From an uncultured Chthoniobacter sp. (GTDB lineage: Bacteria > Verrucomicrobiota > Verrucomicrobiia > Chthoniobacterales > Terrimicrobiaceae), in contig CAZPEN010000023.1 in assembly GCA_964585615.1 (NCBI GenBank), positions 1-64,000 of the forward strand: 64,000 nucleotides of DNA. Direction: 5' to 3'. Made by a program: the position numbers and the translations under genes. Position 1 is the first letter of the stretch; each line of letters starts with the position of its first letter. Under the pieces are notes generated by a model. The model searched no databases and had not been told where the DNA came from. It saw only the letters and a program-made list of their open reading frames with translations. Shown in pieces: positions 178-60,546 of this stretch.

Positions 178-193
178 TGGCACGATTTTTGCC
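178..193 (+). promoter_or_regulatory. Sigma-54 (RpoN) -24/-12 promoter: TGGCACGatttTTGC
   Basis: Exact match to the TGGCACG-N4-TTGC consensus. GC of the -12 element at 191-192, 15 nt before the ATG at 207. Same strand as the downstream gene block. Confidence 0.7.
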
Positions 194-206
194 TCATCTC
201 CATTCG

Positions 207-680
207 ATGAAAAAACTCACATACGCCCTCCTCGCCGCCGCAGTGCTTGCCGGTGCGGGAAACGGATTCACCCGCGAGCCGGAGAAGTTCACGACCGAAG
301 AGGTCGTGACGGAAAAGAAAACCGTGAAAGTGCAGGCCAGTCCGGCCTCGGCCTTTCCATCCAACCCAAACGCGCAATACGTGAAGCTGCGGGTGGGAGA
401 AATCCGCCCGGCCCTTGAATCGAAAGGGAGCCTGTTTGCCTCCGCTCCGGAAGCCTTTTATCTGCCCGCCGAGGCTATCGGAGTGGTGCAGGTGATCGTG
501 GAAAAGAAAGGCACGACCGCCACGTATTTCCTCAAGGGCCTGCGCAAGGGAAAAACGGTCGGGGGCGTGGTCCAGCGCGGATGGCTTGACAAGACCGGCT
601 TCAAACCGAGGACGATCACCGACGAAGGCCGCATCCAGCAAGCGCTCAAGGCAAAACCCTTTTACGTCACTGTCGAATGA
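207..680 (+). CDS. secreted hypothetical protein (signal peptide MKKLTYALLAAAVLAGAG)
   Basis: ORF 165..680; the N-terminal signal peptide starts at the ATG at 207. No recognisable catalytic motifs. Confidence 0.6.
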   Translation: MKKLTYALLAAAVLAGAGNGFTREPEKFTTEEVVTEKKTVKVQASPASAFPSNPNAQYVKLRVGEIRPALESKGSLFASAPEAFYLPAEAIGVVQVIVEKKGTTATYFLKGLRKGKTVGGVVQRGWLDKTGFKPRTITDEGRIQQALKAKPFYVTVE

Positions 681-958: not shown

Positions 959-2620
959 ATGCCTGCCGTCTCCGAGCTCAATCTGGCGCTGGTGATTCTC
1001 CGCGATGGGGCCGAGGGGGAGACCATTCCACTCAAGGGCGGAAAATTTACGTTCGGGCGCGATGCGGCGCACGATCTCACCCTGCCCGATGCCTCGGTCT
1101 CCAGAAACCACGCGGAGCTGGCCATTTCGCCAGGTGGAGTGCAACTCCGCGACCTCGGGAGCCGCAACGGCATCCGAGTGAACCGGGTTCCCCGTAAGCA
1201 GGCCAACCTCCTGCCGGGAGACACCTTCGAGATTGGTGTATTTACCTTCCGCCTCAAGGCCGGAGCGGCTCAACGGCGTGCGCCCGCGCTGCAACGCCCT
1301 TCGCCAGAGGTCGCCATCGAACAAACCGTCTCTCGCGCCTTCCCACTCCCGCAGCTGTCCCATGAGCGGCAACTCTCCACCATTTACCACGCCTGTTTCT
1401 GGCTCACGGAGAGCACGGATCCTGAGCTTCTCACCGAACGCCTTGCCCGCCTGCTTTGCGATGCGACCGATGCGGTGGAGGCGCAGTTTTATTCCGCAGA
1501 TCTCACCCTGCGCCACCGCTGCGGAGAGGCCGGAAAACCTGTTGTGAAGATCGCTGCTTTCCTTGCTGAGAAATTCCAGTCCCTGCCCGAGGCGGCCATG
1601 GTATCCGGTAAGGAGATCGCCCGGCACCAAAGGGGCGTCGGCCAGTTCAACTATCTCGTGGGCCCGATTCGCCGGGGGGGGAATGGCGATGCGGCAGCCC
1701 CTTTTATCCTCCTCTTGCGCCCCGAAGATTGGGAACCTTTCACCCTCGATCAGCGCGTGCTGTTGCAAGCCGTCTGCCAACTTTGGGCCAGGGAGACGGT
1801 CAAAATCGAAGCCACTGAGACCCTCCGCCGCGAGAACCAAGCCCTCAAGTTGAAGGCGGCCTCCCCAACCTTGCTCGGCCAGAGCGACGTCCTCCAGCAC
1901 CTGCGCCAGCAACTCAACCGCGCCGCCGCCACCAAGGCCACCATTCTGCTCGATGGCGAGACCGGCTCCGGCAAGGAAGTTGTCGCCCAATTTATCCACG
2001 AATCCAGCCCCCGTGCCGCCAAGCCCTTCGTCAAGGTCAACTGCGCCGCCATTCCCGACGGCCTCATCGAGAGCGAACTCTTCGGCCACCAGAAGGGGGC
2101 CTTCACAGACGCAAAAGACAGCCGCAAAGGCAAATTCCTTCAAGCCAACGGAGGCACCCTTTTCCTCGACGAAATCGGCGAGATGCCTCTCTCCGTGCAG
2201 GCCAAGGTGCTCCGCGCCCTCGAAAACGGGGAGATCGAACCCCTCGGCAGCGAGGCCGTGCAGAAGGTGGATGTGCGCGTCATCGCCGCCACGCACCGCA
2301 ACCTTGCCGAGATGGTCGAGCGCAAGGAATTCCGCCAGGACCTCTACTTTCGTCTCAATGTCTTCAACCTCGGTGTCCCTCCGCTGCGAGAACACGCCGG
2401 GGATATCGCCGAACTGGCCCGCCATTTCCTCGAAGCCTTCTGCCGCGAAAACGGCCTCGCCGAACTCGCCATCGCCCCCGCGGCCCTGGCCCTTCTCGAA
2501 AAACACCAATGGCCCGGCAACGTGCGCGAACTGCGCAATGTCATCCAGCGTTGCGCGATCGTTGCCGCCGGGCCGACGGTTTTGGCGGAAGACGTGAAAA
2601 AGGCGATCGGTGTTTCCTAA
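959..2620 (+). CDS. FHA-domain / GAF-like / sigma-54-interaction (AAA+) transcriptional activator lacking a C-terminal HTH
   Basis: N-terminal FHA signature ([22 protein letters not shown]...NGIRVN). Central AAA+ sigma-54 activator motifs: GETGSGKE Walker A, GAFTDA (GAFTGA-like), DEIGEM Walker B, GNVREL. Protein ends about 30 aa after the AAA+ domain with no Fis-type HTH. Confidence 0.85.
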
Positions 2621-2638: not shown

Positions 2639-4438
2639 ATGAAAAAACTCAAAATCCTCTGCATTCACGGCGTGGGCCAGCACGAGGCGGACATCGCCTG
2701 GGTGCAGGCTTGGGCGGATCATGCGATTCAGGGCACGAAGCCCTGGAACCCGACTCTGCAAACCGAGGCAGACCTTCTCTATTTTGAAAAGTTTTTCGCC
2801 GACGCGCCGATCAATGCGGCGACATATGCCAAAGCGATCTCAGCGATGACCTTCAGCGGGCTGACACACGGAATCGGGGATTTGTTCCGCCGCAACCGGG
2901 GGGTCACGGAGGTCTCCAACAAAGTTCGCTGGCTTGCAGGCATGGTGGTGCAATGGGCGGACAACCCTCAACTCCGGGACAAGGTGCGGAAGGCAATCCG
3001 GCAGAAAATCACGAACTATCAACCCGATGTGATTCTCGCCCATAGCCTTGGCTCGCTCGTCACCTACGATACATTCGTGCACGGCGGGGACGATCTCGTG
3101 CGGGACCGATATTACGTGACCTTCGGGTCCCAAATCGGAAATCCCTTCGTGAGAAATATTTTTGGAGGACGGATTGTCCCTCTACCCGCCAAACGCTGGT
3201 TCCATCTTTTCAATCCTCAGGATGACGTGCTGACCGCCCGATTGAATCTCTCGGACACAAATTTTCTTCAAGTCATCACGGATTTTGAGCTTGAAGGCGT
3301 TGGCGATCACGATGCCGATGGCTACCTCAGCCATGCATCTGCCGTTCAGGTTGTGTGGTCAGAGATCAGTGGGGCCGAAAAATCCCAGTTGGCGAGGAAT
3401 CTGAAGGGAAAGTTCACGGCATCCGTGCGCGGTGCGGGCAAGCCTCTCAACCGGGCGCTGATCATCGGAATCAACGACTATCCCGATCCCAAGATGCGGC
3501 TTGAGGGATGTGTCAACGACGCCTTCCGCATGAGTGAGACGCTCCAGGAGTGCGGCTTTCCCGCAGAGGGAATCCGCCTGCTGCTCAATGAGCGCGCCAC
3601 GACGGATGCCATCCGAGAGCGCCTGGCCTGGCTGCTTGACCGTCCCCAGCCGGGCGACCAGCGGTTCCTGGCCTTCAGCGGGCACGGAGCGCAGATCGAA
3701 TCCTACGGACTCGGTGAATCCGTGGACCGTCAGGACGAGTGTCTTGTGCCCTACGATTTCGACTGGAGCCTGGACCGTGCCATCCTCGACGACTTCATCC
3801 ACGACCTCTACGTGGACCTCCCCGAGGGGCTGGACTTTTACGCGTTCTTCGACTGCTGCCACTCCGGAGGACTGGCCCGTGAGGGAGGCCCGAGGGTTCG
3901 GGGCCTGCAGCCTCCCGACGATGTCCGCCACCGCAGCTTGGAATGGGATGGAAAGCTGCAACTCTGGAAAGCCCGCAACCTGCCTCCCGTTAATCCCGAT
4001 CTCGCCGCATCGACAAAAAGCACATCGGCGATCAGTGGCGACGGGTCGGCCCTTTCAAATGGACAGTCTTACCTGGGGCGATCCGGGAATCTGCACCGCC
4101 TCTTGCGCTCTTCCTCACTCCGCACACTGCCAAACGCAAAATACGACTCCGTGCGCAAGGATCTCCATCACCACGGCCCCTATCTGCCCGTCATCTTCCA
4201 AGCCTGTCAGGAAAGCGAACTCGCCTGCGAATACCACCACGGAGCAGTGCCCTACGGGGCTTTCACCTTTGTCACAACCAATATCCTCCGCCAACACGCC
4301 GCACAGAAAAAGACGATCACCTTTGCCTCGTTGATCAAACGAACCAACTCCGCGCTCAAGGCGCTCGGTTACACACAGACACCGGTGCTCGTGGGACCAA
4401 GCGTAAAAATGCGAAAACCAATGCCTTGGAAGAAATAG
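2639..4438 (+). CDS. alpha/beta-hydrolase (lipase/esterase-like, AHSLGS nucleophile elbow) fused to a C-terminal caspase-like peptidase C14 domain
   Basis: N-terminus ILCIHGVGQ, AHSLGS, and later D and H residues typical of alpha/beta-hydrolases. C-terminal half has the caspase His (FSGHGAQ) and Cys (FFDCCHSGG) dyad after an ALIIGINDYPD..L.GCVNDA start. Confidence 0.8.
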   Translation: MKKLKILCIHGVGQHEADIAWVQAWADHAIQGTKPWNPTLQTEADLLYFEKFFADAPINAATYAKAISAMTFSGLTHGIGDLFRRNRGVTEVSNKVRWLAGMVVQWADNPQLRDKVRKAIRQKITNYQPDVILAHSLGSLVTYDTFVHGGDDLVRDRYYVTFGSQIGNPFVRNIFGGRIVPLPAKRWFHLFNPQDDVLTARLNLSDTNFLQVITDFELEGVGDHDADGYLSHASAVQVVWSEISGAEKSQLARNLKGKFTASVRGAGKPLNRALIIGINDYPDPKMRLEGCVNDAFRMSETLQECGFPAEGIRLLLNERATTDAIRERLAWLLDRPQPGDQRFLAFSGHGAQIESYGLGESVDRQDECLVPYDFDWSLDRAILDDFIHDLYVDLPEGLDFYAFFDCCHSGGLAREGGPRVRGLQPPDDVRHRSLEWDGKLQLWKARNLPPVNPDLAASTKSTSAISGDGSALSNGQSYLGRSGNLHRLLRSSSLRTLPNAKYDSVRKDLHHHGPYLPVIFQACQESELACEYHHGAVPYGAFTFVTTNILRQHAAQKKTITFASLIKRTNSALKALGYTQTPVLVGPSVKMRKPMPWKK

Positions 4439-7664: not shown

Positions 7665-7680
7665 TGGCACAGAAATTGCC
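7665..7680 (+). promoter_or_regulatory. Sigma-54 -24/-12 promoter: TGGCACagaaaTTGC
   Basis: Matches the TGGCAC-N5-TTGC consensus. In the 95-nt gap before the kinase gene. GC of -12 at 7678-7679, 13 nt before the GTG at 7692. Confidence 0.65.
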
Positions 7681-7691
7681 GGCCAGCGTAA

Positions 7692-9599
7692 GTGACAAAC
7701 GACGAACTCAATTCCTCCACGCTCAGCGGCGCGACCAGCGCCGGCGACGGTGCGTTGCCGGACGACATCGATTTCGGCCAGACGATCCGCGGGTTTGTCG
7801 AAGGGCAGGAGGCGTTTGGCCGTTATCGCCTTCGGAAGATTTTGGGCCGGGGCGGCATGGGGCTTGTCTGGCTGGCATGGGACGGACGGCTGGAGCGGGA
7901 TGTCGCGCTCAAGTTCATGCCGGAGATGGTGCGTTTGGATGCTTCGGCCATTGACGATCTCAAGCGGGAAACGCGCAAGAGCCTCGAACTCACTCATGCC
8001 AACATCGTTCGCATTCACGATTTTGCCATGGACGACTTGTCGGCAGCCATCGCCATGGAATATGTGGATGGCCCTACGCTTTCGGCTCTCCGCATCCAAA
8101 AACCGAACCGCGTTTTCGAGCCGGACGAGATTGTTGAGTGGGTGCGCCAGCTCTGCGCCGCCCTCGACTATGCACACTCGGAGGCCAAAATCGTCCATCG
8201 TGACCTCAAACCCGCCAACCTGATGCTCAGTTCCGGCGGACGCCTCAAAATCACCGACTTCGGCATCGCACGATCAATCAGCGACAGCATGAGTCGCGTT
8301 TCGGTGCAGCATCACGACAGCAGCGGCACGCTCGCCTACATGAGTCCACAGCAGGCCATCGGTGCGAAGCCTTCCTCAGCGGATGACATCTACAGCCTCG
8401 GGGCGACTCTCTATGACCTCCTTACCGGGAAGCCTCCGTTCCACAGCGGGAACATCTACGCCCAAGTTCGAGAGGTTGTGCCACCACCCATAGCCGAGAG
8501 ACGGGTGCAGCTGGACGTGGGAAGCAGCATGGTGCTTCCTGAGTCATGGGAAAAGATGATTGCAGCTTGCCTGGCGAAGGATCCTGCACACCGCCCGCAA
8601 TCGGCTGCCGAGATCTGGGAGGGTCTCAACGTACGTGTGTCCGCTGACACGTTGAAAAAATCGAGCCGCTTTCCGGTGCGGGTGGCTGCTGTTGTGGTCC
8701 TCTCCCTCATCGCTGCAGGCGCAGGCTGGTGGTTCGGCTACGAGCAGCCGCGCCAGCAGGCTGCTGCCGCACTCGCAGCCCAGGCGCAGGCCGAGGGACT
8801 CGCCCGCCAGGCCGCTGCTGCCGAGGCACAGGTTCAAAAGGAAGAAGCCGAAACCGCCGCTCGACAGGAAGCCGAGCGAAAGAAGGCCGAAGCTGCCGCC
8901 GCCGAGCAAGCCCGCATCGCCGCAGCCAAGCAGCAGCTCATCACCGAGACCCAGGATCTTGCTCAAAAGGCGCTCGCGGCCAAACAGTGGAACCAGGCAG
9001 AGTCCATTGCCGACAAACTTACCTCGCTCGACCCTCAGAATACGCAGATCGCGAGCATCCGCCAGTCTACAGTAGTCGGCCGCGAAGCCCAGCGTACCTC
9101 CGAGGAACGCGCCCGGGCGCTGCCCCCCGACCTCCCCGCCTCCGCAGCCTTCAGCACAGAAGCGATCTTCGCTCCCTCCCCCTACGCATCATACAACAAC
9201 TACTCGCAAAGTCAGATCCTTCGAAGAGCTCAGGAAAAGCTCAAATCAGCCGGGCTTTACAGCGGATCCGCTGACGGAGAATCCGGTGCAGGAACCACAA
9301 ATGCACTCATCGCTTTCCAGCGGGCAGACATGAACTTGCCTGTTTCAGGACGGTTGGATGATCCCACGCTCGCCGCACTCGGCCTCACCGGCATCGCCGA
9401 AATGACAGCGCCTACCCCCACACCACGTCCAAAACCGACCGCCACACCGAGGCCAAAGCCCGCAGGCACTACGAAGCCTCCTCCTTCCAATCCCAATAGT
9501 TCCGTGGATCCTAGAAGTGCCCTTCAAAGAAACTACGAGGCGGGATACATAGACAAAGAAACAAGAGACTTTTACCTCGAAGGTTTAAAAAACAGATAA
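7692..9599 (+). CDS. Hanks-type Ser/Thr protein kinase with TM helix, Ala/Gln/Glu-rich coiled-coil linker and C-terminal peptidoglycan-binding (PG_binding_1-like) domain
   Basis: Kinase motifs GRGGMG, VALK, HRDLKPAN, DFG, SGTLAYMSPQQ. TM segment VAAVVVLSLIAAGAGWWFG. C-terminus LKSAGLYSGSADGESGAGTTNALIAFQRADMNLPVSGRLDDPTLAAL matches the PG_binding_1 pattern. GTG start. Confidence 0.9.
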   Translation: MTNDELNSSTLSGATSAGDGALPDDIDFGQTIRGFVEGQEAFGRYRLRKILGRGGMGLVWLAWDGRLERDVALKFMPEMVRLDASAIDDLKRETRKSLELTHANIVRIHDFAMDDLSAAIAMEYVDGPTLSALRIQKPNRVFEPDEIVEWVRQLCAALDYAHSEAKIVHRDLKPANLMLSSGGRLKITDFGIARSISDSMSRVSVQHHDSSGTLAYMSPQQAIGAKPSSADDIYSLGATLYDLLTGKPPFHSGNIYAQVREVVPPPIAERRVQLDVGSSMVLPESWEKMIAACLAKDPAHRPQSAAEIWEGLNVRVSADTLKKSSRFPVRVAAVVVLSLIAAGAGWWFGYEQPRQQAAAALAAQAQAEGLARQAAAAEAQVQKEEAETAARQEAERKKAEAAAAEQARIAAAKQQLITETQDLAQKALAAKQWNQAESIADKLTSLDPQNTQIASIRQSTVVGREAQRTSEERARALPPDLPASAAFSTEAIFAPSPYASYNNYSQSQILRRAQEKLKSAGLYSGSADGESGAGTTNALIAFQRADMNLPVSGRLDDPTLAALGLTGIAEMTAPTPTPRPKPTATPRPKPAGTTKPPPSNPNSSVDPRSALQRNYEAGYIDKETRDFYLEGLKNR

Positions 9600-13050: not shown

Positions 13051-14592
13051 ATGGGATTCTTTACCGAACGCTGCCCGAACTGCGGGAAACCAATTTCCAA
13101 AAACGCCCAGCATTGCAACCACTGTGGCTGTCCGTCCTCCACCGCCTGGGCGAGTTGCCATTCCTGTGGCACCGCCGTGGGCGCGGACTCGAAATTCTGC
13201 TGGAAGTGCGGTTCCGAACAAAACCCGGACGCCAGGGTGAAGTTCTACGGCGACCGCTGGAGACGATCCGGTTCGGACTTCGCTGTGCGTGTGGAGTTGA
13301 ATACTCCTGAGGCCGTTCTCCACCACGGCCTTCAGGTGGACGACGGCACGCTTGCCCTGATTTTCCAGGACGGTCGGCTGCTGAGCACGCTGGAGCCGGG
13401 CTACCACACCTTCGACAACGTCCTCCAGCGGGTGCTGGGGCTGGACAAGGGCAAGTACGCCCACGCCGTGCTGCTTGACATGCGCTCGGCCGAGGTGGAC
13501 TTCTCGTTCTCCGGTTTGCAGGTGTCCGGCGGGCTGCTGGTGGATTTCCAGGCGCGGCTGTATTTTCAAATCACTGACCCGCAGGCATTTGTGGCTACGA
13601 TGGTGAGCGAGGCCGCATCAACTTTCACCACAGACGATCTCTCCCAGCGCTTCGGGGCGGAAGTTCGCGACGCCCTGCAGGGAGCCATCACCAGCCTCGA
13701 TCTCAACGACCTCCTTGTGCTGGGTGGCGTGCGGTCCCAAGTGGAGGAGGCAATGTCTGGCCCACTCCAACAGCGACTTGCGCCCTTCGGGATGCAGGTG
13801 GCGGGGTTGCGGTTGGTGGATTTCCATGGAACGGCCGTCGAAGGGGCCCGGGCCAAGCTCGGTGAACTGGCCCAACTCAACCGCGAATTCGAACTCAACC
13901 GCCGCCTCGAGGAGGCCCTCCGCCGCGAGAAAGTCGAGGCCTTCCGCAGCGAGGAGGAGGCGGGCGATTACTATTCGAAGATCACTGACGAATACGGACT
14001 CAAAGATGCAGAGCGCGAGGAGAAGAAAAAGCGTTGGGTACAGGCCGCCGAGAACCAGACGCAGGTCGAGGGGATCCGCCTCGATTACCAACTCCGCCGC
14101 CAGGAAATCCTCCACCGCCTCGACGAGCAGGCACTCCTTCACGAGCACGACTTTACCGATCTCAAGGCGAAGCTCGACCAGGACCGCCTCCGGCTCAACG
14201 AGGCGCTGGCCCACGATAAAGCACGCTTCGACCAGGAGCAGGCCCAACGACTCCATAAAGCCTCCACAAATAAAACCATCGCCGAGCAGGGTATCGACAC
14301 TCTCGTGAAGCTCAAGGAGGCGAAACTAGGGGTACGCAAGCAGGAAGACGAGCATGAGTTGAACCTCGAAAGCCAGCGCCTGCGCCTGAGAGGCGACGCA
14401 CCGCTCCAAGCCCTCATCGCCACACTGCCCGCCGAGCAGGCGGACCGATTGCTCAAACTGGCCGAGATGGAAATGCGCAAAGGGCTGAGCGCCGAGCAAT
14501 CCCTCGCGCTTGTCGCAGAAAAATCTCCCGAGATTTCTCCTGCTGTCGCCGACGCCCTGCGGGCGCGCTATGCAAACAAGGAGAAAGAATAA
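13051..14592 (+). CDS. zinc-ribbon (4 CxxC pairs) + SPFH/band-7-like domain + long coiled-coil protein
   Basis: N-terminus CPNCG..CNHCG..CHSCG..CWKCG. Middle region is beta-rich then helical, as in SPFH. C-terminal 200 aa charged coiled coil. SPFH assignment is tentative. Confidence 0.55.
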   Translation: MGFFTERCPNCGKPISKNAQHCNHCGCPSSTAWASCHSCGTAVGADSKFCWKCGSEQNPDARVKFYGDRWRRSGSDFAVRVELNTPEAVLHHGLQVDDGTLALIFQDGRLLSTLEPGYHTFDNVLQRVLGLDKGKYAHAVLLDMRSAEVDFSFSGLQVSGGLLVDFQARLYFQITDPQAFVATMVSEAASTFTTDDLSQRFGAEVRDALQGAITSLDLNDLLVLGGVRSQVEEAMSGPLQQRLAPFGMQVAGLRLVDFHGTAVEGARAKLGELAQLNREFELNRRLEEALRREKVEAFRSEEEAGDYYSKITDEYGLKDAEREEKKKRWVQAAENQTQVEGIRLDYQLRRQEILHRLDEQALLHEHDFTDLKAKLDQDRLRLNEALAHDKARFDQEQAQRLHKASTNKTIAEQGIDTLVKLKEAKLGVRKQEDEHELNLESQRLRLRGDAPLQALIATLPAEQADRLLKLAEMEMRKGLSAEQSLALVAEKSPEISPAVADALRARYANKEKE

Positions 14593-14863
14593 ATAAAATG
14601 GACTCCAGTTCCAATGACAATTCGGTTTCCCGTTGGATGGAACATCTCAGTTCCGCACTGCTTTTGCTCATGGGTGGCTGCCTGGGAGGGGGCGCGATTT
14701 TCGAGATTGTCTTTAAACGCGGAGAACCTTCCGTTTTGCGACAGGAAACATTGCTGGGAATTTTGGTGGCGGCAGCCCTCCTTCTTCCGGGGGTGGCACC
14801 AGAGTTTCGCGCAAACTAGCCAAACAAAAAATGAGAAATCAAAAATGGGGAAGCTGCAGAGAA

Positions 14864-15640
14864 ATGAAATACATTGTTTTAGCACTGCTGGGCATAGCAG
14901 GATTCTCTCGCGCGCAGGAGACAAATTCGCTTGGGATGAAACTTGTGCCGGTGCCTGGAACAAAGATCCTGATGGCGACGACGGAGGTGACGGTGGACCA
15001 ATACAAGGCGGCAGGGCTCGGGTATGAGTCGCCGAAGTTTCCGCAGGGAGGCAATCACCCTGCGGTGAACGTGAGCTGGAACGACGCGAAGAAGTATTGC
15101 GCGTGGCTGAGTAAGAAGGAGGGGAAGAAGTATCGGCTGCCGACAGATCATGAATGGAGTTGCGCTGTCGGAATCGGACATTTGGAGAATCCAGCAGACA
15201 ATCCGGCAAGCAAGAGTGAAAAGATCGTTGATGTGTATCCATGGGGAAAAGGGAAGCCGAGCGGGAAGGCAGGCAACTACATGGGGCAGGAGTGGAATTC
15301 GCCAATGGGAATCGAGACCGCTCAAAAATACGGATTCAAGCGGGGCGAGTGGAGTTTAGTTCCTGGCTATCACGACGGAGTTCTTTTCACATCGGCGGTC
15401 GGCAACTACTCACCGAATACATTTGGGATCTACGATTTGGGGGGAAACGTTTGGGAGTTGTGCGAGGACAAGTTCGGCGGGAACGGATATGATAAGAGCA
15501 TGCGTGTGCAACGGGGCGGGTCATGGGGATACTTCACCAAGGATTTTGTATTATCGTCCTCCCGTATCCGCAATGAACCAGGATCTCGCAGCGACAACAT
15601 CGGCTTTCGGGTTGTGTGTATTCCAATAGATAAACCGTGA
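14864..15640 (+). CDS. FGE-sulfatase (SUMF1/formylglycine-generating enzyme family) domain protein, secreted, paralog 1
   Basis: NHPAVNVSWNDAKKYCAWLS, RLPTDHEW, DLGGNVWE, RGGSW motifs typical of the FGE-sulfatase domain. Signal peptide. Confidence 0.8.
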   Translation: MKYIVLALLGIAGFSRAQETNSLGMKLVPVPGTKILMATTEVTVDQYKAAGLGYESPKFPQGGNHPAVNVSWNDAKKYCAWLSKKEGKKYRLPTDHEWSCAVGIGHLENPADNPASKSEKIVDVYPWGKGKPSGKAGNYMGQEWNSPMGIETAQKYGFKRGEWSLVPGYHDGVLFTSAVGNYSPNTFGIYDLGGNVWELCEDKFGGNGYDKSMRVQRGGSWGYFTKDFVLSSSRIRNEPGSRSDNIGFRVVCIPIDKP

Positions 15641-15756
15641 ATGATATGAATGAATCAAAAACGTTGGCAAAGCCAGGAATTGGAAGACAGCCTTCCGGAT
15701 TTAGTATCGAAGTGGAGAGCGAAGCGAAGCAAATGGCTTGCCGATCCGTCCGAGTA

Positions 15757-16566
15757 ATGAAAGCGAAACGCATCGGCAGGATGCGGATGCCACGATGGGT
15801 TGTCTTGGCGATGGCGCTTGTGGTGTCGGCGTCTATCGCTCGCGCGCAGGGTTTCACGAACAGCGTTGGAATGAAGATGGTTCCTGTGCCGGGCACAAAG
15901 ATCCTGATGGGGACGACGGAGGTGACAGTGGATCAATACCGGGCGGCAGGTCTGGGGTATGAGGCACCGGAGTTCGCGCAGAGCGGGAACCATCCGGCGG
16001 TGAATGTGAGCTGGAACGATGCGAAGAAATACTGCGCATGGCTGAGCAAGAAGGAGGGGAAGAAGTATCGTTTGCCGAGTGACCGGGAGTGGAGTTGCGC
16101 GGTGGGGATCGGGAATCTGGAGAGCGTGGGAGGGAGCCCGGAGAGCAAGTGCGAGAAGTTGCCGGATGTGTTTCCGTGGGGAAGCGGGAAGCCGAGTGGG
16201 AGGGCAGGGAATTACATGGGGCAGGAGTGGAAAAGTAGCTCGGCAGGAATAGCATATGCGAAATCGAAGGGTTGGAAAGAGGGGCAACTGTGCCTGGTTC
16301 CCGACTACAATGATGGACACATGTTCACGGCTCCCGTGGGAAGCTATTCACCGAACAGTCTTGGGATCTACGATCTGGGGGGAAACGTGTGGGAATGGTG
16401 CGAGGACAAATACGGAGGAAGCGGAGCAGCAAAAGCCTATCGTGTGATGCGCGGCGGGGCGTGGGGCGGTGGCGACATCTGCGGTTTGCTGTCGTCGTGT
16501 CGCGATCACGTCAATCCCGAGTATCGCGGCGGTAGCTACGGTTTTCGGGTGGTCTGTGAGGCGTGA
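15757..16566 (+). CDS. FGE-sulfatase domain protein, secreted, paralog 2 (tandem duplicate)
   Basis: About 70% identical to the upstream paralog over the domain. Same motifs. Confidence 0.8.
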   Translation: MKAKRIGRMRMPRWVVLAMALVVSASIARAQGFTNSVGMKMVPVPGTKILMGTTEVTVDQYRAAGLGYEAPEFAQSGNHPAVNVSWNDAKKYCAWLSKKEGKKYRLPSDREWSCAVGIGNLESVGGSPESKCEKLPDVFPWGSGKPSGRAGNYMGQEWKSSSAGIAYAKSKGWKEGQLCLVPDYNDGHMFTAPVGSYSPNSLGIYDLGGNVWEWCEDKYGGSGAAKAYRVMRGGAWGGGDICGLLSSCRDHVNPEYRGGSYGFRVVCEA

Positions 16567-18893: not shown

Positions 18894-18909
18894 TGGCACG
18901 GAATTTGCC
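18894..18909 (+). promoter_or_regulatory. Sigma-54 -24/-12 promoter: TGGCACGgaatTTGC (perfect consensus)
   Basis: Exact TGGCACG-N4-TTGC. 58 nt upstream of the ATG at 18966. Precedes the tandem FHA-TM-caspase genes. Confidence 0.75.
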
Positions 18910-18965: not shown

Positions 18966-20921
18966 ATGCCTGCCATAAACCCTCTCCGCATTTCCCGACT
19001 CAGCGGCTTCGGCTCGAAGCCCCCGCAGGACTTTGATCGATCTCCCGTTACCCTCGGCACAGCGTCCAGTTGTCACATTCGCTTCGATGCCGTTCTCGAC
19101 AAGGGCGTGGGGCCGCAGCATGCCCGGCTGGAGTGGAATGGAGAGGCGTGGTATTTGCTGGATGGCGGAACGCCCGCTGGCATCTGGTTAGATGGGCGTC
19201 GGCTGGAAGAACCCCTGCGGGCGGGAGGGGAGTTTTCCTTTCGGCTGGGTCAATCGGGTCCGGGAGTTTCCGTGCACGTGCTGCCAGCCAGCGTTATGTC
19301 TGAGGTCCCGGTCGCTCCGTTGCCGGTTCTTCCGCCCCCAAAAACAAAGCCACGTCTGCCAGTCGCGGGGATTGTGGTGGCAATCGTGCTTGCGGTGGCA
19401 ATCCTCGCCGGGGGTGGGGTTTTCATAGGGCGGAAGCTCGCGAACCCCAAAAATCTGGATTTCTCCGCACCAGCCCAAGAAGAGGATTTCTCACTAACCG
19501 ATCCCGTCTTTCAGGCGCAGCAGGCACAACAGCAACTCGCCTCAACCCCGCCGGGTCCGCAACCATGGGATCAGACCGGTCCGGACGAGGAGGATCTCAC
19601 CTGGCTGCCGATGGAGCCATCGTATCAATACTCAACTTATGTCCAAGGATGGACTCCCGGGAGCGGCAGCAGCCCCTTCACCGGAGATCTCTCCAGCCCA
19701 AGCCTGGCACAGGAATTTGCCCAACTCAGCATCCGCCCCCCGCAATTCGTCGAAGAACCCGGCGGTGGCCTGCCCCCCCAATCGGCGGGAGCAATCTGGA
19801 CCACGGACGACACCCGGTTGGCGGTGGAGCTGATGCTGGCGGCGGAATATGGCGCCAATCCCCCGCCAGATACAGAGGCACAGGGAGGGCTGCCAGCACA
19901 GGGAGCACCGGGCGTGTTCGTTCCGGGCAATCTTTCTCCTGAAGAGCTCCAGGCGGTCGAGGATCAGCTTGGCCGCCAGGCATCGAAGGCAGCAGGGGGA
20001 AATGCGCGGCATTTTGCAAAGACTTTGCGCATGGCCCTCGATACGGAGGCTCGCAATGCCGGACGGCAGCGCCTTGCGGCAAGTGCACGGGAGGAGGGGG
20101 CAACTTCTCCAGACGTCAGCCCGCAGGTGTGGGCGGTGATCGTTGGCATTGACGATTTTGAGAATATCAACGACATCGTGGGCTGCAAAAACGATGCCAT
20201 CGGCATGGCGAAGATTCTCATGCTGCACGGGTTGCTCCATCCCAAACGAACCTACTTGATGACCGACAAGATGCAGGGAGCCATGCGACCGACGGGAGCG
20301 AACATCAAAAGAGCCTTGAACGAGGTCCTCACCAAGGCGGGACCGAACGATATGGTGGTTTTCTTTTTTTCCGGCCACGGGGGAGAAGATCCCGCCTCGG
20401 GGGAAACCGTGTTCACCGGTGTGGACTTTACCTTCGACGATCCACTGGATACGGGGTTGACCGGCTCCGCTCTCCAGTCACTTATTAAACGCTCCGCCGC
20501 GTCCAAGTTACTCATGTTCTTTGATGCCTGCCACGCTGGCGGTTTGGCGCCACTGGGCCGGAATCCGCGGGGATTTCGCAGTGGTGTGAATCCGACTTTT
20601 CTCGATCAACTGGCCGAGGGCCGCGGGCATGTGGTGATCCGCGCCGCCGCCAAGGAGGAGATGAGCATCGGGAGCGATAAATTGAATCACGGTATTTTTA
20701 CATTTGTCACGCTGGCGGGTCTGACAGGAGGGGCGGATCGCGACAAGGATGGAATCGTGACCCTCAGCGAACTGCGACCCTACGTGACTCGGGAGACTCC
20801 GAAGCTTGCCAAGCAACTCGGCCATGACGTCTTCCATCCGAGCTTTACGAGCGGCGGACAGGCGGGTGAAATCGGCGACATTCCGCTGACGATCGTTCCT
20901 CCACCGGCACCCAAAAAATAA
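18966..20921 (+). CDS. FHA domain - TM helix - Pro/Gln-rich linker - caspase-like C14 peptidase
   Basis: N-terminal FHA (SPVTLGTASSCHIRFD..QHARLEW..WYLLDGGTPAGIWLDGRRL). TM VAGIVVAIVLAVAILAGGGVFIG. C-terminal caspase with FFFSGHGG (His) and FFDACHAGG (Cys). Confidence 0.85.
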   Translation: MPAINPLRISRLSGFGSKPPQDFDRSPVTLGTASSCHIRFDAVLDKGVGPQHARLEWNGEAWYLLDGGTPAGIWLDGRRLEEPLRAGGEFSFRLGQSGPGVSVHVLPASVMSEVPVAPLPVLPPPKTKPRLPVAGIVVAIVLAVAILAGGGVFIGRKLANPKNLDFSAPAQEEDFSLTDPVFQAQQAQQQLASTPPGPQPWDQTGPDEEDLTWLPMEPSYQYSTYVQGWTPGSGSSPFTGDLSSPSLAQEFAQLSIRPPQFVEEPGGGLPPQSAGAIWTTDDTRLAVELMLAAEYGANPPPDTEAQGGLPAQGAPGVFVPGNLSPEELQAVEDQLGRQASKAAGGNARHFAKTLRMALDTEARNAGRQRLAASAREEGATSPDVSPQVWAVIVGIDDFENINDIVGCKNDAIGMAKILMLHGLLHPKRTYLMTDKMQGAMRPTGANIKRALNEVLTKAGPNDMVVFFFSGHGGEDPASGETVFTGVDFTFDDPLDTGLTGSALQSLIKRSAASKLLMFFDACHAGGLAPLGRNPRGFRSGVNPTFLDQLAEGRGHVVIRAAAKEEMSIGSDKLNHGIFTFVTLAGLTGGADRDKDGIVTLSELRPYVTRETPKLAKQLGHDVFHPSFTSGGQAGEIGDIPLTIVPPPAPKK

Positions 20922-20923
20922 CT

Positions 20924-22600
20924 ATGAGCAGCGAACTTCAAATCACCAAGATCACGGGATTTCAGCGGGGCAAAGCGACCCGGTTTGTCGAGAGCCCCGT
21001 GGTGCTTGGCACGGCCGACACTTGCTCTCTCATTTTTGATCCCGCTTGGGATAAGACGGTTTCTGCCAAGCACGCCACAGTGGAACTCCGGGAAGGTGAC
21101 TGGTGGTTCATTGACCACAGCGAGCATGGCAGTTGGATCAACGGCCAACGGCTTTCCGCCGCCCGCAAACTGGAGCCGGTGACCGAAATCGAACTCGGGC
21201 GCGGCGGCCCAAAGATCCGGTTGGAGTTTGCCGTGGCCCCGATGTCGTCTCCTGTGCCCATGAGTCCTCCTCCTGTGCAAGCCCCGGTACCCCCTGTGCC
21301 CACGCTCCCGGCTTCAATGGGGCCAGTCAAAAGGGGATCTCGCGGATCCAAGCCCCTCGTATTGGCAGCAGGGATTATTCTTTTTCTGGGTTTGGGAGTG
21401 GCGGGGATCGTGTTTTGGAACGGCTCCAAAGAGGAACAAGCCCTGGAGGAAACTGCTCAGGAAGCCCCGCCCGACGAAGAGTTGTGCGAACTGGTCGAGG
21501 AATCCGCCCCGCAAAATCCCCCGCCTTCGGCAACGACTCCCGCGTCGTCAGCCATTGGTCGCGGCTGGGCCATCATTGCTGGCGTCAACCAATACTCCAA
21601 CGGAATCAACTCCCTCGCCATGTGTGTCAACGACGCCAAGGCGGTCGCCAAGTCGCTGGTGGACTCCGGCATCTTCCACTCGGACAGCGTGATTCTGATG
21701 ACGGACGAATCGCCTCCCGAGTTGCAGCCGACTTCGATCAATATCGAACGGATGATCAAGACCGTAGCCGCCCAGGCCAAGCCCGAGGACATTGTCTATT
21801 TCAGCTTTTCCGGGCATGGCGACTGGGACGAAGCGAAGCAAGACTCGATGATTATCACCAGCGACGCCAATCCGCAGAATCTCGAACGCACCACTCTCTA
21901 TGGCGCGACCCTGCAAAAGCTCTTCTCCGGAATCGCGGCCGAGAAGCTCATTGTCGTGCTGGACTCCTGCCACAGCGGCGGCATTCAGGTAAAGGGCCGC
22001 AAGGAAGTCCGCCAAGCCGCAGGAATCCCCGAGGCGTTTTATCAGAAGTTCACCGATTCCAAGGGGCAGATCACCGTGCGTTCCTGTGCTTTCAACGAGG
22101 TTTCCTGGGAGTCACCCGAACTGGGGCACGGGCTCTTCACCTACCATCTGGTCGCCGGGCTCACCGGAGCGGCAGATCGCGACGGGGATGGAATCGCCAC
22201 CCTTTCCGAGGTGAGGGCGTATGTTTCCGAAAAGGTCCCGGCAGACGCGGTTGCCAAATTCGGCGAAAAGCAAACCCCGAGCTTTACCAGCGGCGGCCTG
22301 CTGGGTGAGGTCGGCGACATTCCGCTCACCGTCATACCGGCCCAGCGAGCCCGACGTCTCGGCACGCTGGACACCCTGCGCCAGCGCGCCAGCGCCCTCT
22401 CCGCCCAGGACAAAATTTCCGCTCAGGAACTCGATACCATCAAAGATACCCTGCGTGTCCTCTCCGAAAAACGCCGTTTCGCTCCCGCCGAACAAGAACA
22501 GATCAAACTCACACTTCGGCTGCTCCTGGGAAAGACCACTGCAGCCGACTACCGCCTGGCCTCACGGGCACTCGGCGGCACAAAGCCCGCGTCTAAATAG
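20924..22600 (+). CDS. FHA domain - TM helix - caspase-like C14 peptidase (paralog of the upstream gene)
   Basis: FHA (SPVVLGTADTCSLIFD..KHATVEL..WWFIDHSEHGSWINGQRL). TM LVLAAGIILFLGLGVAGIVFW. Caspase FSFSGHGDWDE and VLDSCHSGG. 3-nt intergenic gap from the upstream paralog. Confidence 0.85.
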   Translation: MSSELQITKITGFQRGKATRFVESPVVLGTADTCSLIFDPAWDKTVSAKHATVELREGDWWFIDHSEHGSWINGQRLSAARKLEPVTEIELGRGGPKIRLEFAVAPMSSPVPMSPPPVQAPVPPVPTLPASMGPVKRGSRGSKPLVLAAGIILFLGLGVAGIVFWNGSKEEQALEETAQEAPPDEELCELVEESAPQNPPPSATTPASSAIGRGWAIIAGVNQYSNGINSLAMCVNDAKAVAKSLVDSGIFHSDSVILMTDESPPELQPTSINIERMIKTVAAQAKPEDIVYFSFSGHGDWDEAKQDSMIITSDANPQNLERTTLYGATLQKLFSGIAAEKLIVVLDSCHSGGIQVKGRKEVRQAAGIPEAFYQKFTDSKGQITVRSCAFNEVSWESPELGHGLFTYHLVAGLTGAADRDGDGIATLSEVRAYVSEKVPADAVAKFGEKQTPSFTSGGLLGEVGDIPLTVIPAQRARRLGTLDTLRQRASALSAQDKISAQELDTIKDTLRVLSEKRRFAPAEQEQIKLTLRLLLGKTTAADYRLASRALGGTKPASK

Positions 22601-57049: not shown

Positions 57050-58189
57050 TCAAAATCTCATGCGAATGCCTTGGGAATGCCGCTGCTGTCGTTGCTCATT
57101 TTCTAGGATTCGGATGATGGTTCGTAGGAGTCGCAGGGAGCCGACAAGCAATTGACCTCGCCGGAAATGATGGCCCAAAGCAAGTCGGGAAAGATCATTT
57201 CCACTGGCAAGGAAACGAGCCAGCTCTCTTGCCGGGTCCGAATGTGCAACCCTCGTTTTGGGATGAGTTCGATCAGGTCGATTTCCTCCGTAGGAAACGC
57301 GCGATTTTCCACGGACAGCCACCCCGTAGGTTTGACGAGGTGATAGGGGTCGATGCGGCTCGCGATTTCGAGCCATGTTTGGTTTCTGGTGGGTTCGGTT
57401 TTTTTTACAAGTTTGGTTTTCGGTGTTTCGATTGCCATGATGTTTGAGTTGGTTGAGGTTGTCGTTGATTTCCGCCAGACGGCGGGATTCTGAGGAAATG
57501 GCTTTGTTGATTTCGGCCTTGCGCATTTTGCGACCGGCGCGGCTCATGGCGGCGATCTGCGGGCCGAGATGTTGGGAGGGTGGACGTTCAATGTCCTGGG
57601 CTTTGAGAGATTGCCGGTTGACGGTTTCGGAATGCCCGGCCTTCTTCAATGCGCGGTTACAGCGCGTCTCCCACATTTCCCGGATGCGCTCGACTTCCAG
57701 CGGGCCGGTTTTGCGATCATCAAGGCAGCGGATTTTATGGGAGGAGAAATTTCCTTTTTCGTCCACGGCACGGGCCGTCATGAATATATGGCCGTGGGTA
57801 TTTCGACTGTCGCCTTTCACGTTGGGATGGTGGAGATTCACACAAACGGCGCACCCGTAGGTGTCGCGAAGTTGAAGGCCGAAACCGCGCAATAGCGCCC
57901 ACTGTTCTTTCGTGCCCAGCTCATGAGGCAAGGCAACATCCATCGCCCGGCCCACACGGGCATCGTAACGCTTTTCTGCCCCTTCTGCGGCGGCGGCAAG
58001 GCATCCCGGCGTCATGGCGGGACCGATGATTTGGGATTCGATCACGTCGGTCTTGTGCTTGGACCAATCGTGTTTTTGACCGGTGCGCTCGTCGGTCAAC
58101 TTGGTGCGCGTGTCATAGGCGATTTGGGCAAAGGCACTGTGCCCCTTGCCCCGGCTGATCGGGCGGATGGACAAATGGAAAATCGCCAT
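57050..58189 (-). CDS. MobA/MobL-family relaxase (C-terminal ~120 aa of this frame look non-protein-like)
   Basis: N-terminus MAIFHLSIRPISRGKGHSAFAQIAYDTR (MobA/MobL signature incl. catalytic Tyr region) and HxH motif (NTHGHIFM). Confidence 0.75.
   Translation of the reverse strand: MAIFHLSIRPISRGKGHSAFAQIAYDTRTKLTDERTGQKHDWSKHKTDVIESQIIGPAMTPGCLAAAAEGAEKRYDARVGRAMDVALPHELGTKEQWALLRGFGLQLRDTYGCAVCVNLHHPNVKGDSRNTHGHIFMTARAVDEKGNFSSHKIRCLDDRKTGPLEVERIREMWETRCNRALKKAGHSETVNRQSLKAQDIERPPSQHLGPQIAAMSRAGRKMRKAEINKAISSESRRLAEINDNLNQLKHHGNRNTENQTCKKNRTHQKPNMARNREPHRPLSPRQTYGVAVRGKSRVSYGGNRPDRTHPKTRVAHSDPARELARFLASGNDLSRLALGHHFRRGQLLVGSLRLLRTIIRILENEQRQQRHSQGIRMRF
57103..57438 (-). CDS. hypothetical protein in alternative frame overlapping the relaxase 3' region
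   Basis: Protein-like composition, unlike the relaxase frame over the same nucleotides. Confidence 0.25.
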   Translation of the reverse strand: MAIETPKTKLVKKTEPTRNQTWLEIASRIDPYHLVKPTGWLSVENRAFPTEEIDLIELIPKRGLHIRTRQESWLVSLPVEMIFPDLLWAIISGEVNCLSAPCDSYEPSSES

Positions 58190-58481
58190 TTCAGGAAACC
58201 GGTTTGGCCGGGTAGGAAAAGAAAACATCCGCCGGACCGGGTGTCCGGTCCGTGGGGCGCGAAATCGCGGCTCTCCAAAATCCGTGCGTGGGATTTTGGC
58301 AGAGCGGTCGGGCCAAGTCCCGACTGCCCGCACAGGTGTCAGGCGAACGGTAGTGAGCCCTTTTCGCCCCCGGCGAAAACGCGCTCGCGTCGTGGGGTTC
58401 CCCCCACGATGCGTAAGTGCGCTTCGCCTTCAAGAGAAGGCTTCGGTGGCTCGGAAGTCTCATTTGCAAAGACCCTCTCTT

Positions 58482-58757
58482 TTACCGGCGAGAGGGAGGC
58501 AGTGCTTCCTTCGCGGCCTGGGGAAAGACCGAACGCAAAACCTCCCTGTCCGGCTCTGAGGCGGCGGACAGGAGTTCGGAGAGCAATGGCTGATGATCAC
58601 GCAAGACCAGCCCGCCAAGAATGATCTTGGCGCGGGTCAGTCGTTTGCGCTCGGAGGTTTTGGCTTCTTGACGGAGACGGCGGATTCGTTCTTCGATCTG
58701 CCGTTTCTCGGTTTCGAGCTTTTCAATCTTTTGCTGGCTGGTGGTTGGGATTTCCAT
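58482..58757 (-). CDS. MobC-like relaxosome accessory protein
   Basis: Coiled-coil KRQIEERIRRLRQEAKTSERKRLTRAKIILGG resembles the MobC family. Immediately upstream of the relaxase. Confidence 0.5.
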   Translation of the reverse strand: MEIPTTSQQKIEKLETEKRQIEERIRRLRQEAKTSERKRLTRAKIILGGLVLRDHQPLLSELLSAASEPDREVLRSVFPQAAKEALPPSRR

Positions 58758-59048
58758 AGGTCTGGGGTTGGTGTTTTGAAAATGCCGTTTGTTCAAAACG
58801 GCGGGAGAGTGGTGCGCCTGAAATTCCCGACAGGCTTTCCGCGTTCGTCGTTGCCCGCTCCGGTTTCGTAAACTGGTAGGATGAAAACTGGCTTGCCTCT
58901 TCGGGCCATTGCAGGCGATTCCATCCAACCGCTCGCCACATGACACCGCCTCCCCGGCAGACAACGCCACGCCCCTTTTTTCTTCCTACAGGCCGGAAAG
59001 AAATCGACGGAGATTTTGTGATTCCCGATTTTTCGCATGAGGCCCTTT

Positions 59049-59564
59049 TCATGCCGTGACCCCGGTTTCAGCCGATCTGACAAAACGTCTCTCGCTGGGC
59101 ATGAGGGGAGGCAATTCCCCGCCCACCAATCGTTCGTATGCTGTTTCCACGGATTCCGTGGCGACAAGCAGGTCCCGTCCTTCCCGCAGAATGATAAACC
59201 AACCGCCCTTCGCGTGCCGGGTAGCCCACAGCATCCGGTCAACGAGCTTGGCCGAACCAAGCACGGCGATGATTTGCTTTTTTGTCAACGTCAGCGGGCG
59301 CATGCCTGCAATGGAAACTCGCTGGATAGAACGATTCATCCGATTCTCCGGTTGGAAATTTCGACCTTCATCATGAGTCTCAAGGTAGAAAAGTTTTCGG
59401 AATTGATGTCTCTGATTATGGAGAAATCTGTTTTCGGCTTCATGGATGCCACTACCGCACAATGGCGGGAAAACCCTGTTCCTGGCTGGGAACAATATGC
59501 GCCAATTTTTTGCGGCGATTTTGTCGGCGGTCTGCTGGGTCTGATCGCGGTCATGAAGCGACAA
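59049..59564 (-). CDS. hypothetical protein
   Basis: ORF between mobC-like and abiEii; competing plus-strand ORF is low-complexity. Confidence 0.25.
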   Translation of the reverse strand: MSLHDRDQTQQTADKIAAKNWRILFPARNRVFPPLCGSGIHEAENRFLHNQRHQFRKLFYLETHDEGRNFQPENRMNRSIQRVSIAGMRPLTLTKKQIIAVLGSAKLVDRMLWATRHAKGGWFIILREGRDLLVATESVETAYERLVGGELPPLMPSERRFVRSAETGVTA

Positions 59565-59676
59565 TTAGCCGCTGCTGCGCGGTCCCCCTGCTCCAGATTG
59601 GGAGCAACTTCAAGCGGCGCAGAACTTCCGTGGAAATCGGTGGACGACCTCGGTCACACGGACGGGTCGGAACAAT

Positions 59677-60546
59677 TCAAACGCGAGGTCTTGTCAGCGA
59701 AATCCAAGGCCCCGGATGCTTCCAGTCCATTGTGAAAGAATCTCCAGTGCGCAACGCCTCGTGAACAGGCCGCAAAAATCCCCGGATCGCAGTGACCGCA
59801 TCGGAGAATGTCGATGGAGCTTCGGAAGGTCGCATCCGTTTCAAGAACCCTGCCCATTGTGACTGCTTGGAAGGGTCGAAGTCGTCCTCGAATGCCTGTG
59901 GTGCGGCGGTAAGTTCCGTCCCCCGTTTGCGAAAAGTGGCAAGGATGGCAGCACTCAAGTCGGCACCGGAAAAATCCGATGTGTTTGCCAGCAACCACAC
60001 GTCGAAGAAATCCTTCATTCTGCTGTTGAGTCTTCCCAGAGAGACCATCGCCTCGAACTTTTCGGCAATGGCTGTTTCCCGGTTGTAGGCACGCAAGACG
60101 GGAGCGGGATAGTCGAGAATGGTCGGATAGCTGATTTCGACCGGTCCGGGAGTCACGATGTCGCTGAACCCCATATCGATCTGCATGGAGAGCCGTGTGG
60201 TGGCGAGAATTCCGGTAAAGGTTGCCCGCACCCCCTCGTAGTCGGCATCCTCGGCAATCCTCGTCGTGATCACGCTTTCGGAGTCGAACAAAACCCCATC
60301 ATCCGGCACATCTGTCCGGCAAATCTCCGCAATGATGCGCGTGATCCCGTTGAGATCGTTACTGGTTCTGGCCAGCAGGTCGATGTCACGGGTCGCCCGC
60401 AGGATCGGAGCACGCCATGCCACGAGCATCAACGCCCCTTTCAGGATGAAAAGATTCTCGTGCCCGGACTGCGACAATCGATAGAGCCATCTTTCCAGCG
60501 CGTAATACTGAACGAGGGAAGGAACGCCCCGACTCTTTTGACACAT
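59677..60546 (-). CDS. AbiEii/AbiGii-family nucleotidyltransferase toxin (type IV TA)
   Basis: YALERWLYRLSQSGHENLFILKGALMLVAWRAPILRATRDIDLL matches the AbiEii N-terminal signature. Confidence 0.7.
   Translation of the reverse strand: MCQKSRGVPSLVQYYALERWLYRLSQSGHENLFILKGALMLVAWRAPILRATRDIDLLARTSNDLNGITRIIAEICRTDVPDDGVLFDSESVITTRIAEDADYEGVRATFTGILATTRLSMQIDMGFSDIVTPGPVEISYPTILDYPAPVLRAYNRETAIAEKFEAMVSLGRLNSRMKDFFDVWLLANTSDFSGADLSAAILATFRKRGTELTAAPQAFEDDFDPSKQSQWAGFLKRMRPSEAPSTFSDAVTAIRGFLRPVHEALRTGDSFTMDWKHPGPWISLTRPRV

Follow-up and report, generated by a model that had tools for sequence, protein, structure and literature searches.

The subject of this report is an open reading frame (ORF) at positions 959-2620 of a 64,000-nucleotide stretch of DNA from an uncultured Chthoniobacter sp. 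(contig CAZPEN010000023.1, positions 1 to 64,000; hereafter the 64-kb window). The ORF encodes a sigma-54 activator that joins an N-terminal FHA domain, a divergent GAF-fold domain and an AAA+ core and that, like its relatives, ends without a DNA-binding domain. We propose that this activator is gated by a Ser/Thr kinase through its FHA domain, acts without an enhancer and feeds its own expression, a reading to which we give a probability of roughly 60%. Behind it stand the domain architecture, the catalytic and sigma-54-contact motifs, the conserved truncation of the C-terminus, a series of conserved sigma-54 promoters and the linkage to kinase genes.

Domain architecture and conservation

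The ORF lies on the + strand, has an ATG start codon and a TAA stop codon and specifies 553 amino acids (aa); independent Joint Genome Institute (JGI) metagenome contigs carry an identical protein. Its features are as follows.

959-2620, + strand: FHA-GAF-AAA+ sigma-54 activator without a DNA-binding domain, 553 aa
1049-1237, + strand: FHA domain, residues 31-93 (Pfam E 1.7e-14)
1325-1327, + strand: codon for Thr123 in the FHA-GAF linker, a candidate phospho-acceptor (Thr in 120/122 homologues)
1355-1855, + strand: divergent GAF-fold domain, residues ~133-262, then a 37-residue helix, 263-299
1874-2371, + strand: Sigma54_activat AAA+ core, residues 306-471 (Pfam E 3.1e-71)
2387-2608, + strand: AAA_lid_14, residues 477-550, with the sensor II motif GNVREL at nucleotides (nt) 2516-2533

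The AAA+ core matches PF00158 with 238.9 bits (cut-off 20.2) over model positions 2-167 of 168. Its motifs include Walker A GETGSGKE (333-340), Walker B DE (404-405), R459, R465 and GNVREL (520-525). Conservation was assessed in a homologue set of 122 proteins (46-100% identity to the activator; median length 554 aa): each residue examined in Walker A, Walker B and sensor II, and each of R459 and R465, is the same in 120-122 of these proteins, with the exception of V522 (V in 111, I or A in 10). The L1 loop is GAFTDA (380-385, nt 2096-2113), and across the homologues it reads either GAFTDA (84 proteins) or GAFSGA. Both versions are on the list of L1 variants compatible with activation, and the characterised Desulfovibrio activator DVU2106 has GAFTDA (PMC4641369). 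The architecture and its conservation are all but certain, and the protein is most likely a functional AAA+ activator of the sigma-54 type; ATPase activity and the opening of sigma-54 promoters are its predicted functions.

The FHA domain keeps the residues that contact phosphothreonine (pThr), namely G33-R34, S48-R49-x-H51 and N70-G71. These are well conserved among the homologues (R34 and S48 in 120/122, N70 in 117/122, G71 in 121/122, H51 in at least 90%). Thr123 is likewise nearly fixed although the linker positions that flank it vary. The linker itself is modelled with low confidence (AlphaFold2 predicted local distance difference test [pLDDT] 51-64 over model residues 1-30). The first-pass annotation of this DNA had named both an N-terminal FHA domain and a sigma-54 AAA+ domain; the hidden Markov model (HMM) match to FHA (E 1.7e-14) and the intact core agree with it on both counts.

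The protein ends 28 residues after GNVREL, close to the 30 or so estimated earlier, and only three residues past the lid. HTH_8, the helix-turn-helix (HTH) domain of such activators, is absent from the Pfam scan. NorR, NifA, NtrC and other NCBIfam models match through their central parts only (for NtrC, model positions 124-381 of 463). Of the solved structures, NifA (9qq6) is matched as far as chain residue 454 of 528 and ZraR (1ojl) as far as residue 249 of 304; nothing in the activator therefore corresponds to the linker and HTH of either protein. The other two reading frames have no HTH coding potential, and the next ATG follows the stop codon after a gap of 18 nt.

The same endpoint is found across the family. 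An exact GN[VIL]REL motif is present in 117/122 homologues, of which 116 end 25-37 residues later and one ends 39 residues later; the other five comprise four proteins with a one-residue variant of the motif and the same endpoint, and one partial record. In all nine complete proteins scanned, AAA_lid_14 is the last domain and HTH_8 is absent. Because the homologues share this endpoint and have the lid last, absence of the DNA-binding domain is a trait fixed throughout a compact family, for which a GAF-like-domain profile retrieved only 28 proteins from 1.84 billion cluster representatives, with no relatives outside the activator family. The first-pass annotation's statement that there is no Fis-like HTH is therefore correct and extends to the whole family, and the alignment of the 122 homologues identifies the short C-terminus as a genuine truncation and not a frameshift.

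A genome scan with a 12-sequence GAF alignment gave matches in metagenome-assembled genomes (MAGs) of Terrimicrobiaceae, Chthoniobacterales, Limisphaerales and Verrucomicrobiales; this is a family of Verrucomicrobiota. Two loci are filed elsewhere, L009 (DATLZF010000529) under a Methylomirabilota MAG and L010 (CAZZAQ010000064) under an 'uncultured Bifidobacterium sp.' MAG. These labels probably reflect contamination by mis-binned contigs.

A receptor Ser/Thr kinase as candidate partner

The pThr contacts of the FHA domain suggest control by a phosphorylated partner, and a kinase gene lies about 5 kb downstream of the activator.

7692-9599, + strand: receptor Ser/Thr kinase, behind the exact sigma-54 promoter at 7665

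This protein has a cytoplasmic kinase domain, one hydrophobic segment, which probably spans the membrane, and a C-terminal extracellular PG_binding_1 domain. It is likely to monitor the envelope. Residues 24-35 (window 7761-7796), N-terminal to the kinase domain, form the motif DDIDFGQTIRGF, which includes Thr31. The pattern D-x-D-F-G-(Q/A)-T-(I/L/V)-R occurs in 8/8 kinases, these being the window kinase and seven encoded beside orthologous activators (in L003, L006, L007, L009 and L012). This N-terminal Thr motif is a candidate docking site for the FHA domain.

The neighbourhoods of 12 related loci were compared by BLAST. Kinase genes flank the orthologue in 5 of 10 other distinct loci by BLAST (three in L003, one in L006, two in L007, and one each in L009 and L012, all within 10 kb), with two further cases that are weaker or detected by HMM only. 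The catalytic domains of these neighbouring kinases are 50-65% identical to the kinase domain of the 7692 product; their extracellular domains vary (PG_binding, FGE-sulfatase, beta-helix, PEGA). The first-pass annotation had singled out the 7692 kinase as the obvious candidate for the partner. Kinases often flank the closer relatives of the activator, though none is found beside two distant ones (see below), and the kinase is best described as a good candidate partner.

The GAF-fold domain and its possible role as the switch

The middle of the protein (residues 96-305) has no Pfam match, GAF models included, even at E<=10, and a sequence-profile search of the PDB with the middle domain gave only a chance match (E 0.43). 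A confident AlphaFold2 model, computed from an alignment of 32 sequences, has a pLDDT of 88.3 and a predicted template modelling score (pTM) of 0.81. On this model the middle domain is confirmed as GAF at the level of fold, and the earlier GAF call is upheld in that sense by the fold search. The last GAF helix of the model, 37 residues long (263-299), leads straight into the AAA+ core. Invariant residues of the domain are R137, H144-x-C146-x-W148, E211 and Q224. The H-x-C-x-W motif (144-148, nt 1388-1402) is in the first GAF helix of the model, and C273 and W276, in the last, are mostly conserved; H-x-C-x-W together with C273/W276 could form a redox or metal site or serve as a dimer interface. 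The GAF-fold domain has no recognisable ligand-binding motif of a known kind, and its invariant residues pointed to no particular ligand.

Since the GAF fold is a ligand sensor in activators of the NifA/NorR type, a second, small-molecule input is possible, and the first-pass annotation went too far in excluding control by a ligand domain. Taken further, the same fold yields the most probable alternative to kinase gating: the GAF domain, responding to a small molecule, a metal or redox state, would be the real switch, and the FHA domain would only localise or scaffold the activator, for example by tethering it at the membrane kinase or at FHA-caspases, possibly with negative effect. This fits the role of GAF as the sensor of the NifA/NorR/FhlA class (PMC7175178), the invariant R137, H144-x-C146-x-W148, E211 and Q224, and the existence of family members with no adjacent Pkinase-type gene. 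We nevertheless regard it as unlikely, as the near-invariant pThr contacts of the FHA domain and Thr123 argue for selection on phosphopeptide binding, kinases with a common N-terminal Thr motif recur beside the activator gene, and the domain offers neither a recognised ligand-binding motif nor a match to the Pfam GAF models.

Sigma-54 promoters and operon organization

The window was searched for TGGCAC-N5-TTGC, exactly and with one mismatch. Three exact sites were found against 0.14 expected, a number that 1 of 100 shuffled sequences reaches. Together with two one-mismatch sites, all are on the + strand, intergenic, and at the head of operons in the first 23 kb.

178-192, + strand: exact sigma-54 promoter TGGCACGATTTTTGC; 14 nt separate the end of its -12 element from the ATG at 207
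7665-7679, + strand: second exact sigma-54 promoter, upstream of the kinase gene with 12 nt to its start codon
12983-12997, + strand: near-exact sigma-54 promoter TGGCACGGAATCTGC; the gene that follows, 13051-14592, encodes an SPFH/zinc-ribbon protein
14794-14808, + strand: near-exact sigma-54 promoter TGGCACCAGAGTTTC, before tandem FGE-sulfatase-domain genes 14831-16566
18894-18908, + strand: third exact sigma-54 promoter, before the FHA-caspase genes 18966-20921 and 20924-22600
207-680, + strand: first operon gene, encoding an exported 157-aa protein with a signal peptide and a C-terminal Ig-like beta-sandwich
677-949, + strand: second operon gene, encoding a 90-aa proline-rich lipoprotein with an LVGC lipobox
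2639-4438, + strand: downstream operon gene, encoding a 599-aa caspase (Peptidase_C14) protein

As the first-pass annotation had stated, the activator gene is inside the first sigma-54 unit, with two small genes between it and the promoter at 178. The genes for the 157-aa protein (whose window copy has no lipobox Cys) and the lipoprotein overlap by 4 nt, and a 9-nt gap separates the latter from the activator gene. The caspase-domain gene is followed by genes for a CHAP-domain protein and then a membrane protein. No terminator was predicted at the gene junctions of the activator operon. Given the promoter at 178, the tight gene spacing and the lack of a predicted terminator, transcription of the activator gene very probably starts at a promoter of its own target class.

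This arrangement is partly conserved. An orthologue of the first gene adjoins the activator gene in six loci. The two small exported-protein genes are co-directional with the activator in L006, L007 and L008, where the first small gene has a sigma-54 site with one or two mismatches 14-16 nt ahead of its ATG. In L003, L011 and L014 the small genes (in L014 the first only) are divergent from the activator, and a sigma-54 site precedes the first small gene, further upstream, in two of these three loci (L003, L014). The earlier claim of positive autoregulation thus finds support in the co-directional loci and none in the divergent ones. Among the other recurring neighbours are SPFH/zinc-ribbon genes, which are behind exact sigma-54 sites in L006 (3467-) and L007 (7075-), and genes for FHA-domain proteins homologous to the FHA-caspases of the window.

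The -12 elements end 12-16 nt before start codons (window 178-207 and 7665-7692; L006 3514-3545, L007 7895, L008 8900). With the usual spacing to the start site, the transcripts would have no leader or almost none, one of them, that of the kinase, starting at GTG.

Proposed enhancer independence

An activator that lacks a DNA-binding domain may act from solution, with no enhancer, and we found no upstream motif common to the five promoters beyond chance. The sequence ATTGTCT(T/C)T is present at 7578, 12932 and 14706 (-87, -51 and -88 relative to three of the five promoters) and also at 5958. As an enhancer it was rejected: 7-mers are shared at chance level, and it is absent upstream of every orthologous promoter examined. 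The intergenic space upstream of the 7665 and 18894 promoters is approximately 70-120 base pairs (bp).

An alternative is that the activator works only in mixed rings with a DNA-binding activator encoded elsewhere, as in FleT/FleQ or HrpR/HrpS, with the partner supplying promoter targeting. Mixed activator rings are established: FleT, which has neither regulatory nor DNA-binding domains, pairs with FleQ in Cereibacter sphaeroides (PMC7175178, PMC3162934). Moreover, an HTH-less activator among several activators would otherwise have no specificity. Against this, neither the window nor the flanks of the 12 BLAST-compared loci contain a second activator gene, and none was called in L017, in L018 or next to the genes of the distant members P0036 and P0102. 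The promoters have no shared upstream motif beyond chance, the sole candidate is missing from orthologous loci, and the intergenic space before 7665 and 18894 is short. We judge mixed rings to be less likely still than a GAF switch. As for the short C-terminus being a frameshift, an assembly error or the decay of an HTH-bearing activator into a pseudogene, the chance is next to nil: the protein is identical on independent JGI contigs, 122 homologues from many samples share its endpoint, the relatives scanned end with the lid, the other frames hold no hidden HTH before a gene that begins 18 nt past the stop, and the catalytic motifs are all intact.

Proposed mechanism

The circuit that we infer would begin at the membrane, where the Ser/Thr kinase, sensing the envelope through its extracellular peptidoglycan-binding domain, would autophosphorylate, possibly on the Thr of its N-terminal motif. 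The FHA domain of the activator would then dock on this pThr, on its own Thr123 after phosphorylation by the kinase, or on both. GAF and receiver domains restrain the AAA+ core in activators of the Nlh2 and NtrC1 types, and docking may free the core from a comparable hold by the GAF domain and its long helix, yielding an active ring. With no HTH, the ring would engage the promoter-bound sigma-54 holoenzyme directly, in the manner of FlgR and CtcC (PMC7175178, PMC7482065), and open the promoters at 178, 7665, 12983, 14794 and 18894. The outputs would be the activator operon (a positive feedback), the kinase operon, and the caspase-like, FHA-caspase, peptidoglycan-hydrolase, SPFH and FGE-domain genes. 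Such a circuit would be self-amplifying, because the activator and kinase operons are both behind sigma-54 promoters. The proposal is a compact one, with a single kinase, a single FHA domain, a single conserved Thr and five promoters close by.

Several points weigh against this proposal. FHA domains can bind partners without phosphorylation, and the main signal could come in through the GAF domain. No Pkinase-type gene is present within 10 kb of the genes for P0036 and P0102, which are located among housekeeping genes; at the P0086 locus the sole kinase is a distant one of the CHASE2 type. The divergent loci place the activator outside the sigma-54 unit, and autoregulation is accordingly not a rule of the family; where the activator is expressed solely from a promoter that depends on it, basal expression is required, and no source for it was identified. 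[quoted passage not shown] Finally, FlgR and CtcC act in genomes with one or two activators, where the cost in specificity is small (PMC3162934).

Other features of the window

In the region 1-22600, which includes several sigma-54-headed units, every gene is on the + strand. It encodes three caspase-domain proteins, two of which have an N-terminal FHA domain, as well as CHAP, M15/peptidoglycan (PG)-binding and C39-like peptidases, an SPFH/double-zinc-ribbon protein and the PG-binding Ser/Thr kinase. The two tandem FGE-sulfatase-domain paralogues are 64-69% identical. This set of domains is reminiscent of the conflict or cell-death systems that Kaur et al. described in 2020 (PMC7159879). PADLOC assigned no defence system and returned generic matches only (RtcR-type AAA+, PD-T4-6-type kinase, caspase). 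Two further groups of genes are unrelated to the activator: MobA/MobL relaxase and AbiEii toxin genes at 57050-60546, which point to a mobile-element remnant, and a MoxR (AAA_3)-DUF58 operon at 29.7-32 kb.

Comparison with known activators and significance

Activators without an HTH are an accepted class (PMC7175178; PMC3162934; CtcC in PMC7482065). A review divides sigma-54 activators into five groups, of which the sole group without a DNA-binding (D) domain is receiver-driven; the scheme includes no group in which an FHA or GAF input goes with the lack of a D domain (PMC7175178). FlgR (Helicobacter/Campylobacter) and CtcC (Chlamydia), which belong to group 5, resemble the present activator in that the AAA+ core and lid come last and no HTH follows (PMC7175178, PMC7482065), and direct contact with the promoter-bound holoenzyme is the presumed mode here as well. 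The input differs: in FlgR and CtcC it is a receiver phosphorylated on Asp by a histidine kinase, whereas here it is an FHA domain plus a GAF fold, with Hanks-type Ser/Thr kinases as neighbours. Response_reg has no match in the activator. The Chlamydiae, to which CtcC belongs, are grouped with Verrucomicrobia in the PVC (Planctomycetes, Verrucomicrobia, Chlamydiae) superphylum.

The FHA input has its closest likeness in Myxococcus xanthus, whose FHA-domain enhancer-binding proteins were reportedly described by Jelsbak, Givskov and Kaiser in 2005. There, as here, an N-terminal FHA domain stands in place of the receiver, suggesting control by Ser/Thr kinases, in which the organisms concerned are rich. 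Those proteins belong to another phylum, however, and are said to retain a C-terminal HTH, which the activator lacks, and to have no GAF domain between FHA and AAA+. In the group 3 activators NifA, NorR, FhlA and Aquifex Nlh1/Nlh2, a GAF domain is N-terminal to the AAA+ core, as it is here, but an HTH is present, FHA is absent, and the GAF domain of our activator has diverged beyond the reach of the Pfam GAF models. GarA/OdhI of Actinobacteria likewise have an FHA domain beside a conserved Thr in a flexible segment and a receptor Ser/Thr kinase nearby. In GarA the phosphorylated Thr is bound by the FHA domain in cis, which switches the output. GarA acts on metabolic enzymes and has its Thr N-terminal to the FHA domain, so that the likeness is an analogy only, phosphorylation of Thr123 being putative.

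As the activator has neither the receiver of FlgR/CtcC nor the HTH of the other groups, it is outside every named subgroup. Each of its parts is known separately (the missing HTH from FlgR, CtcC and FleT, the FHA input from Myxococcus, the GAF domain from NifA, NorR and Nlh1/2); the combination is uncharacterised. In the literature we found no description of an FHA activator without a DNA-binding domain, nor of one in Verrucomicrobia. The principle of the enhancer-independent activator is already established, and what is noteworthy is the combination and its fixity across the phylum. On our proposal the family would add a type of activator in which signalling by eukaryote-like Ser/Thr kinases is coupled straight to sigma-54, with no enhancer.

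To our knowledge, Verrucomicrobiota, a phylum of soil and water, has almost no regulatory genetics. The hypothesis also indicates what sigma-54 would control there, an envelope-associated set of caspase-like proteases and peptidoglycan hydrolases, in agreement with the suggestion that the bacterial exterior is under sigma-54 control (PMC3162934). We offer one wider interpretation as a tentative and somewhat doubtful one: that the FHA-GAF-AAA+ proteins serve Verrucomicrobiota as their general sigma-54 activator, working without an enhancer as a counterpart of CtcC in the sister phylum Chlamydiae, and gated not by two-component systems but by Hanks-type kinases through a GarA-like interaction of FHA with phosphorylated Thr123. 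If this were true, one output of the family would be a self-amplifying module for envelope damage or cell death, made up of caspase-like proteases, FHA-caspases and peptidoglycan hydrolases.
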